A DNA stretch of 33,016 nucleotides. Origin: Escherichia coli (GTDB taxonomy: Bacteria > Pseudomonadota > Gammaproteobacteria > Enterobacterales > Enterobacteriaceae). The stretch lies in assembly GCF_003334385.1 (NCBI RefSeq), contig NZ_QOWN01000050.1; one strand, written 5' to 3'. Positions within the stretch are counted from its first letter, which is position 1; each line of letters opens with the position of its first letter. The notes beneath the pieces were generated by a model. The model did no database searches, was not told the DNA's origin, and saw nothing but the letters and a program-made list of their open reading frames with translations. The translations under genes were made by a program, and so were the position numbers. Positions 13,869 through 21,404 of this stretch are shown here, one piece after another.

Positions 13869-14041
13869 AATTGCCACGCCTAAATGAAAACCACAAGTCC
13901 CTGGCAAATATTGTTAATAAAAACGTGGCACAGCTTACATTTACAACGGCAAGGCCACTTGAACACCGGGACATTGTACAGGTACAACAGCAAAAGTTAC
14001 AAATTTGTAGCAATTATTTTGATTGGCATTATCTATTAATA

Positions 14042-14072: not shown

Positions 14073-14603
14073 TCAGGCATTGAGAATTTCGTCGAGATGC
14101 AACTCTTCAGAAATCTGTTTAACCCATTTTTCTACACGTTCAGCGGTCAGTTCCGGCTGACGGTCTTCGTCGATAGCCAGACCGACAAAGTGGTCGTCAT
14201 CTGCCAGACCTTTTGATGCTTCGAAATGATAGCCCGCAGTTGGCCAGTGACCAACGATGGTTGCACCGCGCGGTTCAATGATGTCGCGGATGGTGCCCAA
14301 TGCGTCGCAGAAATATTCGGCGTAATCTTCCTGGTCACCACAACCAAACAGCGCAACCAGTTTGCCGTTGAAATCAATCTCTTCGAGAGTCGGGAAGAAG
14401 TCATCCCAGTCACACTGCGCTTCGCCGTAATACCAGGTTGGGATGCCCAGCAGCAGAATGTCATAAGCTTCCAGATCTTCTTTGCTGCTTTTTGCAATGT
14501 CATGGACATCGGCAACGTCTTTACCAAGCTGTTTTTGAATCATTTTTGCGATATTTTCGGTATTACCGGTGTCGCTGCCGAAAAAGATGCCAGTGATAGC
14601 CAT
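14073..14603 (-). CDS. fldA: flavodoxin 1, 176 aa
   Basis: Internal Met 40 of the track ORF gives [23 protein letters not shown], the flavodoxin FMN-binding loop. Confidence 0.95.
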
Positions 14604-14742
14604 GAGTGAAATAACCTCTTGAAACTTATTGAAATGGGGGTGGAAAATTGCCCACGGATAAAGGCAATCATAGCAGAACAGGCAGTCTTGCGGAATCAGC
14701 AAACGAGCAGGACTGCACACTGTGCTACATGAAAGTGGAAAT

Positions 14743-15036
14743 TTAAACGATGCCCTGACTACGCAGCGCCGCCAGTTGCTGCATTAACATCTCTTCGATC
14801 AGTTCGCTACGGCTCATATTGCGCGACTCCGCCAGCTCGTTCAGCGCCTCGACAGCTTCCGCGTTCAGCTTCAGTTCGACACGCTTAAGGCCACGTACTT
14901 TGTCGCGTTTTAGCTGGTTGCGTTTATTAATACGCAGCTGTTCATCGCGCGAAAGCGGATTAGTTTTCGGTCGTCCCGGTCGACGCTCGTGCGCGAACAG
15001 ATCTAATGTCGTACGGTCCGTTTGTTCTTTGGCCAT
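14743..15036 (-). CDS. ybfE: LexA-regulated small protein YbfE, 97 aa
   Basis: Internal Met gives [28 protein letters not shown]... Confidence 0.8.
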
Positions 15037-15152
15037 GATCTTGGTGACTTCGGGGGAAACAATCAGCCAGGCCTCTGCCCGGATGGATAGCGCGCCATAA
15101 TACATCAGCGCGATGAGTCACGCCAACGCCCACGCGCGGAAAGCGACGCGGA

Positions 15153-15172
15153 CGCTGGGTTTTTAATCAGTT
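15153..15172. promoter_or_regulatory. candidate LexA (SOS) box upstream of ybfE
   Basis: CGCTGGGTTTTTAATCAGTT has the form CTG-N10-CAG with an AT-rich centre; about 120 bp upstream of the ybfE ATG. Confidence 0.4.
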
Positions 15173-15175
15173 GCG

Positions 15176-15940
15176 TTAATCATTGAGATAGCGACGGATA
15201 GCGCGTAATACCGCATCCGGTTTTTCAGCATGGACCCAGTGACCCGCGCCTGCAATCACATGCGCCCGTGCCTGTGGAAATTGAGCCAGTAAATCATCAC
15301 GGTACTGCTCGCTAACATACGGAGAATTGCCGCCAGGGATAAACAGGGCAGGGTGATCCCATGCCGGGATTTTCTCCCAACCTACAATATGCGGATACTG
15401 ATCCCACAATACCGGCACGTTAAAGCGCCACTCCCCGTCAACAAAAGATTTCAGCAGAAACTGAATCACCCCTTCTTCATTAAGATGCTGGCGCATTATT
15501 GCTGCTGCTTGCTGGCGAGTTTGTGCGTCCGATTCACTGACCGCGTTGATAGCCGCAAAAATCTCATCATGACGGCGTACGTGATAGTCGACCGGCGCGA
15601 TATCGATCGCTACCAGTTTATCGATGCGATCGGAGGCTAGTGCAGTAAGTGCCATTACCGCTTTACCGCCCATGGAGTGACCGATAAATGTTGCTTTGTC
15701 GATCTGCTGTGCATCCAGAGTATCAACAAGATCCTGCGCCATCGCCGGGTAATTCATTACCGGATCTCTCGGTGAAAGACCGTGGTTACGCATATCAACC
15801 TGGATGATATTGTGATCGTTTACCAGATCGCGAGCCAGTACGCCAAGGTTGTCGAGGCTGCCAAACAGACCGTGGACAAGAACGATGGGAGAATTATTGT
15901 GCTGGTTTTGTGCAGTTTGCGCGCGGATATTCAATTTCAT
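15176..15940 (-). CDS. ybfF: alpha/beta-hydrolase esterase YbfF, 254 aa
   Basis: Nucleophile elbow GHSMGG and length match YbfF. Confidence 0.9.
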   Translation of the reverse strand: MKLNIRAQTAQNQHNNSPIVLVHGLFGSLDNLGVLARDLVNDHNIIQVDMRNHGLSPRDPVMNYPAMAQDLVDTLDAQQIDKATFIGHSMGGKAVMALTALASDRIDKLVAIDIAPVDYHVRRHDEIFAAINAVSESDAQTRQQAAAIMRQHLNEEGVIQFLLKSFVDGEWRFNVPVLWDQYPHIVGWEKIPAWDHPALFIPGGNSPYVSEQYRDDLLAQFPQARAHVIAGAGHWVHAEKPDAVLRAIRRYLND

Positions 15941-20083: not shown

Positions 20084-21404
20084 TTAACCGTGTTTATTTT
20101 TCAGTTCAAAGCGTGGTGATACCAGACCATACAGTGTCCAACCAAGGAAGGTCACGATGGAACCGTACAGCATGGCTTCTTCCCCGGATGAGTACAGCGC
20201 ATAAAAGCTATACATCGCGCCAACAAAAGCAACAAAGTTTGCAACTTTCGCTTTTGAGGGGGGCACATTAGCGACCTTCTGAATAATGACTAATGCCGCC
20301 ATTGACAGAATATACGGAATGATATTGGTCACCACGGCCAGGTTAACCAGCACGTTGAACTGACTGTTTAGCGACGGGCTAATGGTCATCAGTGCCAATC
20401 CACTCTGAATAATCACAATGGTCAACATTCCCTGCACCGGTGCATCCACTTTGGTTACACGGGAGAAAATTTTAGGGAAGTAGCCTTCATCAGATGAAGA
20501 TTTAAACACCTGGGCAATGGTGAACTGCCAGCCAAGTAGCGAACCGCAGCAGGACATCACCATCAGCGCCATAATGACTTTACCCACTTCCGGCGTGAAC
20601 ATCTGCGCGAAGGCCAGACCAAATGGTGCCGTTGAATTTGCCAGCTCCATATTTGGCACAATCCCGGCAATCACGTTGGTGGAGACGATATAAATCACCG
20701 CCGCACCTAACGTACCGCCGAGTACCGCGATTGGCACATTACGTTCCGGGTTTTCCACTACATCAGTATTCGCACACGCAGACTCCAGACCAAGAAAAGC
20801 TCACAGCGTCATAGCGATGGAAGAAACCTACCGCACTGAAGAACGGTGCATGATGCGGATTCCAGGAATCAACGTACAGCGTCGGGCTAAACCAGAACCA
20901 GCCAATAATGCACAGACCGACGACCGGAATAATGACCCCCCACACGGTAATGCTACTGATTTGCCCGGTAATGCGCGCACCACCAAAGTTAGCCACGGTA
21001 CAAATCCACAGCACCCCGATGGTCGCAAGACCAATCTGCACTGGCGACAAACTCGCGCCGAGCAGTTCGGTGCCGTAACCAACCGCCGAAATAGCAATCG
21101 CGACGTTAGCAATCAGCAGTGAGACGCCGTAGGTATAGTTCGCCATAAAGTTACCGGATTTACCGAAAGCATACTCGGCATAACCGCCCATACCGCCTGA
21201 TTTACGGCTGAACATACCGCATTTTGCGAATGCCCATGCCAGTGCCATTGAGCCTACGGCTGTCACCAGCCAGGAGATAATTGAGATTGTCCCGACTTCG
21301 GCAAGCTTTGTCGGCAGCATGATGATACCGGAGCCCATCATGTTGACCATCGTCAGTATGGTTAACTGAACGACGCCCATTTTGTTCGATTTAGCCTGAC
21401 TCAT
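20084..21404 (-). pseudogene. potE: putrescine-ornithine antiporter PotE, reading frame disrupted
   Basis: Two track ORFs in different frames (20763..21404 and 20084..20758) together cover the 439-aa PotE. The frame breaks after ..FFSAVG by one extra T in a T-run (+ strand AAA at 20824..20826), and the restored frame reads SSIAMTL-stop-AFLGLESACANTDVVENPERNV, with TGA (+ strand 20801..20803) where Trp is expected. Confidence 0.8.

Follow-up and report, generated by a model that had tools for sequence, protein, structure and literature searches.

The segment 15153-15172 is the known LexA box of ybfE, an element published in 2000, and it is a composite: the TGA of its CTGA is the ancestral stop codon of ybfF, its A-tract is invariant, and its right arm supplies the 5' base of a covarying hairpin (CCAGCG/CGTTGG). 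We favour, with a probability of roughly 0.55, the explanation that it is a weak, lineage-specific LexA site, built from sequence that is conserved otherwise, with a modest regulatory effect. What is new for this box is that it overlaps the hairpin and the ancestral stop of ybfF, that it is predicted to lie at -72 and that it is restricted to three genera.

The ybfE box, its locus and its score

The window (the whole stretch of DNA that was analysed, 33,016 nucleotides of Escherichia coli) carries a fur-fldA-ybfE-ybfF region like that of E. coli K-12: a 701-bp query around the box matched 5425 of the 5426 complete E. coli genomes and was 100% identical to K-12 MG1655. Along the minus strand ybfF (15940-15176) is followed by ybfE (15036-14743), fldA, uof and fur, with seqA and pgm diverging on the plus strand, and according to RNA-seq data ybfE, fldA, uof and fur form one operon, whose ybfE promoter works in log phase and is silent in stationary phase (PMC4161252). 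The relevant features are the following.

14743-15036, minus strand: ybfE coding sequence, 97 aa, ribbon-helix-helix protein of the CopG family (RHH_1, E = 2.9e-10), 'LexA regulated protein'
15097-15126, minus strand: sigma-70 promoter of ybfE, TTGGCG-N18-TATTAT, with the -35 at 15126-15121 and the -10 at 15102-15097; predicted start at about 15090
15123-15158, minus strand: GC-rich hairpin of the sense strand; its 5' base CCAGCG is the right arm of the box, its 3' base CGTTGG overlaps the -35
15153-15172, minus strand: LexA (SOS) box of ybfE, 20-mer, assigned by its heterology index (HI) of 10.82 and its identity with the published box
15160-15164, minus strand: A5 tract (TTTTT on the plus strand), AT-rich core of the box
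15167-15169, minus strand: TGA of the left box arm, in the ybfF reading frame; the ybfF stop in most Enterobacteriaceae
15176-15940, minus strand: ybfF coding sequence (esterase), whose stop lies 3 nt upstream of the 20-mer

Elsewhere in the window, the matches at the Rfam gathering threshold were three tRNA genes at its very beginning (6-271, -) and a single ES036 (CssrF) sRNA (2597-2639, +).

The interval 15153-15172 is exactly the 20-mer frame of LexA boxes and reads CGCTGGGTTTTTAATCAGTT on the plus strand and AACTGATTAAAAACCCAGCG on the minus strand of the gene. Its CTG-N10-CAG core, CTGGGTTTTTAATCAG, occupies 15155-15170 (+), with CTG at 15155-15157 and CAG at 15168-15170; the arms are inverted and separated by exactly 10 bp, eight of which are A or T. 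Downstream of the ybfF TAA (15178-15176) the 20-mer begins 3 nt later and the 16-mer 5 nt later, and the 20-mer stands 117-136 nt ahead of the ybfE ATG (15036), from which the near edge of the 16-mer is 119 nt and the box centre about 126 nt away. A sequence-only reading had described these arms with their AT-rich core between the ybfF stop and the ybfE promoter, about 120 bp from the ATG, and both the coordinates and the distance are confirmed by our measurements.

The box was scored with a Lewis-type HI, whose matrix was computed from the 18 LexA boxes of E. coli that PMC3009722 gives in its Table 4. In gene orientation the HI is 10.82; the training sites span 0.3-9.3, and the customary cut-off for LexA boxes is 15. 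Besides its AT-rich spacer the box thus has a similarity to the consensus that keeps it under about 15, with 11 of 20 positions agreeing with TACTG(TA)5CAGTA. No other position of the window scores lower on either strand; among the sites whose two arms are intact the runner-up has an HI of 13.0, and the HI scan found no other site below 15 in 14600-15300. A high HI, or a mapped LexA site elsewhere in the region, had been named by the sequence-only reading as evidence that would count against the box; the value is 10.8 here and about 11 in the literature, both under 15, and no better LexA-like site lies near ybfE. The second-best score in the window (HI 11.28) belongs to CACGGTACAAATCCACAGCA at 20994-21013 (+), which has CGG and not CTG as left arm and is probably a chance match.

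For ybfE the literature gives the 16-mer CTGATTAAAAACCCAG as LexA motif and cites Fernandez de Henestrosa et al. 2000 for its validation (PMC2585105); an HI of 11, which goes back to Courcelle et al. 2001, is tabulated for the gene (PMC11228462), and our 10.82 equals it within rounding. Sequence, gene, locus and HI are those of the published E. coli K-12 ybfE box; nothing differs, and we are dealing with one element. The earlier proposal of an SOS box candidate for ybfE is therefore borne out by the published box (PMC2585105), and the statement that the gene is reported to be LexA-regulated agrees with both this motif and the RefSeq product name of ybfE, 'LexA regulated protein'. Reviews also count ybfE among the LexA-regulated or SOS genes. 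It should be emphasized that the reading as a candidate or known LexA box is supported, while its function as an SOS operator is uncertain.

The ybfE box shares the CTG-N10-CAG arms and the AT-rich spacer with the canonical boxes of the gammaproteobacteria (recA, umuDC, sulA, dinI), and like these it would be expected to bind a LexA dimer and to be relieved via RecA-stimulated self-cleavage. It differs from them in having CTGA/CCAG instead of CTGT/ACAG, in its HI (10.8 against 0.3-5 in strong boxes), in lying upstream of the -35, where canonical boxes overlap the -35, the -10 or +1, and in arms that are unconserved across Enterobacteriaceae. At operator residue 15 the bases favoured by LexA are A and C, and at residue 14 the favoured base is T (PMC5999292). 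In the right half-site, CCCAG, C15 is acceptable and C14 is suboptimal, and the left half-site, CTGAT, amounts to T, a disfavoured base, at the symmetry-related residue 15'. Since the left half-site is disfavoured and the right one acceptable, a LexA dimer would be predicted to bind the box weakly and to dissociate from it fast.

Conservation of the box and of the elements inside it

The orthologous region was aligned from 80 species, and the columns of the 20-mer were counted over 75 Enterobacteriaceae species. Invariant are T4, G5, T8, A9-A12 and C19, and G20 is kept in 72 of the 75, while the bases critical for LexA are kept in 65% (C3), 75% (C16), 68% (A17) and 59% (G18) of the species. 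CTG is present in 49 and CAG in 23 of the 75; the two co-occur in 15 species, where 15.0 would be expected if they were independent (phylogenetic relatedness being ignored), and all 15 belong to Escherichia (HI 10.8), Citrobacter (13.5) or Yokenella (15.1). Joint conservation of CTG and CAG at the orthologous position was consequently not found across the 75 species. In Salmonella enterica the site, AACTGATTAAAAACTCATCG, has CAT for CAG and an HI of 17.1, which agrees with the reported absence of an SOS box at Salmonella ybfE, a gene that is yet upregulated by nalidixic acid (PMC8072944). No consistent compensating LexA box was found elsewhere upstream of ybfE in other genera, most of the best sites there having an HI above 15. 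Within Escherichia the 20-mer is identical in three divergent E. coli lineages and in E. albertii, and the flanking bases vary; this constancy is weak evidence of constraint, which the roles of the stop, the A-tract and the hairpin would explain equally well.

A LexA-like motif of a different place was observed in the fldA-fur spacer of several other genera, where CTGTACA...CAG shares bases with TACAAT, the -10 of the uof-fur promoter, and has an HI of 11-13 (loci L002, L065, L069, L071, L073, L077, L079 and L080 of our set, at about 2543-2568). The orthologous sequence in the window, ACCTGTACAATGTCCCGGTG at 13964-13983 (-), has CGG for CAG and an HI of 17.8, and it is not LexA-like.

The first of the elements that share the box is the end of ybfF. 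T4-G5-A6 of the 20-mer is the ybfF stop TGA in 49 of the 71 species with an assignable stop, and in another 17 of them the stop overlaps the 20-mer at some other place; Escherichia ybfF ends at an earlier in-frame TAA/TAG, three codons upstream of the TGA, which is an acquired change. The second element is the A-tract, in which columns 9-12 are invariantly A and column 13 is A in 66 of the 75 species, so that it is better conserved than the LexA-critical bases. As a further observation, the C-terminus and stop of ybfF shift between species over the equivalent of 15163-15178 (-) (at about 1360-1385 in loci L002-L081), in 11 species a TAA or TGA precedes the 20-mer by 1 nt and in six there is a TAA at offset 7, and TAACTGATTAA contains stop codons in each of the three frames in many species.

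The third element is the GC-rich hairpin, located between the ybfF stop and the ybfE -35, with the TTGG of the -35 in its 3' arm. The 81 nt of 15105-15185 fold with -31.9 kcal/mol on the sense strand (z = -2.7) and with -25.1 kcal/mol on the antisense strand (z = -0.5), and the corresponding values of the 47-nt hairpin segment are -27.9 versus -16.0 kcal/mol; the hairpin relies on G-U pairs that are found only on the sense strand, and no U-tract follows it. Folding species by species revealed a comparable hairpin in most of the 34 species. In the named structure 69.6% of the cells are paired (31-54% in slid controls), seven pairs show double changes, and the covariation of 0.216 exceeds the controls (at most 0.138) and was reached by none of 500 shuffles. 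RNAalifold on plain MAFFT alignments gave no useful consensus of the hairpin because the variable loop is misaligned, and no Rfam family was detected in 14950-15250 even at E <= 1. The hairpin could be a stabiliser of the ybfF 3' end or an atypical terminator.

Promoter geometry

TTGGCG-N18-TATTAT was the only promoter-like site that the promoter scan returned in 14650-15350; RpoD genomic SELEX assigns identical hexamers to ybfE (PMC3946193), and the promoter is nearly invariant, TTGGCG ... TAT(G/T)AT, among 80 loci of Enterobacteriaceae and Erwiniaceae. The ybfE start at about 15090 was deduced from these conserved hexamers, about 7 nt past the -10. Relative to this predicted start the box is found at about -63 to -82, with its centre at about -72 and 27 bp upstream of the -35, and it neither overlaps nor abuts the -35, the -10 or +1. 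The LexA operator of recA is situated between the -35 and the -10 (PMC5999292), and all 18 boxes of PMC3009722 Table 4 are within 100 nt of the start codon. Given the predicted start, the ybfE box is outside the usual LexA occlusion zone.

An extra promoter overlapping the box, if real, would bring back the classical mechanism, and the prediction tool used by Culyba et al. gives no sigma-70 promoter for ybfE at all (PMC5999292). Our promoter scan of 14650-15350 called no second promoter over the box on either strand, and the -10-like hexamers in the box (TAAAAA, TTTAAT), inspected by eye, do not have the key A2 or T6 and are not accompanied by a usable -35. A sigma-54 promoter, an IHF site and repeated CTGATT as YbfE autoregulatory sites were also considered by eye and rejected, as either the spacing did not fit or the motif was unconserved.

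Two observations concern the surroundings of the -10 and the leader. The longest ybfE ORF has 120 aa, and its ATG at 15103-15105 (-) abuts the -10 and lies ahead of the predicted start, therefore the annotation of ybfE with 97 aa is sound; many metagenome calls of ybfE have extended starts, this ATG included, giving proteins of 119-136 aa, and these are probably over-extended. The predicted 54-nt leader of ybfE contains a terminator-like stem-loop at 15067-15082 (-), CCGGGCAGAGGCCTGG followed by CTGATTGTTT. A stem stands at the same place in other genera with different sequences (e.g. CGCCC...GGGCG in Enterobacter), RNAalifold on a MAFFT alignment of the leader yielded no useful consensus structure, and the element may serve to attenuate transcription in the leader or to stabilise the RNA.

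Explanations of the box and the place of ybfE in the SOS regulon

The box might be a classical SOS operator: ybfE would be repressed mainly by LexA bound at 15153-15172 and would be induced after DNA damage when RecA stimulates LexA to cleave itself. The publication of the box as validated (PMC2585105), the inclusion of ybfE among LexA-regulated genes in reviews, the annotation, which implies such control, an HI below 15 and the constancy of the 20-mer next to variable flanks within Escherichia are all in line with this. UV furthermore induced a GFP reporter that contains all of the ybfF-ybfE intergenic region and with it the box, although with an atypical late down-regulation; its authors excluded it from their analysis on the grounds that their tool predicted no sigma-70 promoter (PMC5999292). 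The geometry points the other way: the box is centred some 72 bp ahead of the predicted start and misses the -35, the -10 and +1, and at 117-136 nt from the start codon it is farther away than any of the 18 boxes of PMC3009722 Table 4 (<= 100 nt). The responses to other damaging agents do not fit such an operator either. Under AZT ybfE rose 4-fold in RNA-seq, and this induction was not reduced in lexA3 (0.74-fold) but was cut 2.9-fold by the loss of SspA (PMC11228462). Ciprofloxacin did not induce ybfE mRNA in an E. coli K-12 time course, and no ybfE response is listed in a dataset from ciprofloxacin-treated EHEC. Finally, the arms are unconserved, their co-occurrence over 75 species (15) being that expected (15.0), and Salmonella, with CAT, an HI of 17.1 and no SOS box, still induces ybfE with nalidixic acid. 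Altogether we consider a classical operator unlikely.

Published data on the expression of ybfE are mixed. Fernandez de Henestrosa and colleagues reportedly saw lexA-dependent Northern signals for ybfE in 2000; if these hold, the repression of ybfE by LexA may exceed the strength that we propose.

At the other extreme the LexA likeness could be a chance match, so that only a ybfF 3' end module would lie near the ybfE promoter, LexA would not occupy it in vivo, and the damage response would come about via SspA, growth-phase control or the like. In first-order Markov random sequences that use the dinucleotide transitions of the window, 0.3 sites per 33 kb reach an HI of 10.82 or lower and 27% of the random windows have one; taken as a sequence the box is suggestive but not decisive, and it could have arisen by chance. 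The window has 18 copies of bare CTG-N10-CAG where shuffles predict 6.6, and as the count is above expectation the pattern itself carries little information; we infer that the excess reflects the commonness of CTG and CAG codons. A chance match would also be consistent with a conservation that fits a stop codon, an A-tract and a hairpin and not a LexA operator, with the lexA-independent induction by AZT, with the silence of the promoter in stationary phase, and with Salmonella ybfE, which is not induced by the mutagen MX (PMC2225428). It is opposed by the citation of the site as validated (PMC2585105), by the UV-inducible reporter and by the fact that accepted LexA targets have a similar or worse HI (polB about 13, dinB 9.4), and it appears to us clearly improbable.

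It is highly improbable that the hairpin together with T5 of the plus strand (GGGTTTTTAATC) ends an antisense transcript, or that the A-tract and the hairpin form a one-sided ybfF terminator, with the likeness to LexA boxes being irrelevant: TTTTT does directly follow the hairpin on the plus strand, the A-tract is invariant in the 75 species and the hairpin covaries, but the plus-strand fold is weak in E. coli (81 nt at -25.1 kcal/mol, z = -0.5; segment at -16.0 versus -27.9 kcal/mol for sense), the terminator scan called none on either strand, no plus-strand gene or Rfam RNA ends there, and the sense strand has no U-tract after the hairpin.

We return to the weak, lineage-specific LexA site as the preferred explanation. 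The ybfE box is comparable in HI to the weak LexA sites of polB (about 13), dinB (9.4), ftsK (9.2) and yoaA (13), and from weak sites of high HI, as from the ybfE box, small induction ratios are expected; it differs from them in that lexA dependence after AZT was 3.1-fold for polB, 6.9-fold for dinB and 1.7-fold for ftsK and was not seen for ybfE (PMC11228462). Because the box is outside the core footprint of RNA polymerase, LexA bound there might exert a modest, condition-dependent repression at most, possibly by hindering upstream alpha-CTD contacts or by blocking read-through from ybfF. A large part of the induction of ybfE by DNA damage would not depend on LexA. A box that is weak, lies at a non-classical position and is unconserved as a LexA site fits the inconsistent expression data.

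The importance of these findings is small beyond annotation hygiene, although the box gave ybfE its product name. Caution is due where ybfE is used to report the SOS response or to train a LexA motif: it is a marginal case, since its box is weak, has a non-classical position, overlaps elements that are conserved otherwise and is unconserved as a LexA site. Tentatively, and with somewhat less than even confidence, we suggest that the ybfE 'SOS box' is an evolutionary by-product, and that ybfE either joined the LexA regulon very recently and weakly or escapes LexA control altogether. If this is true, the induction of ybfE by damage would be LexA-independent (SspA-dependent in E. coli, and taking place without the box in Salmonella), and the textbook place of ybfE in the core SOS regulon would need revision.
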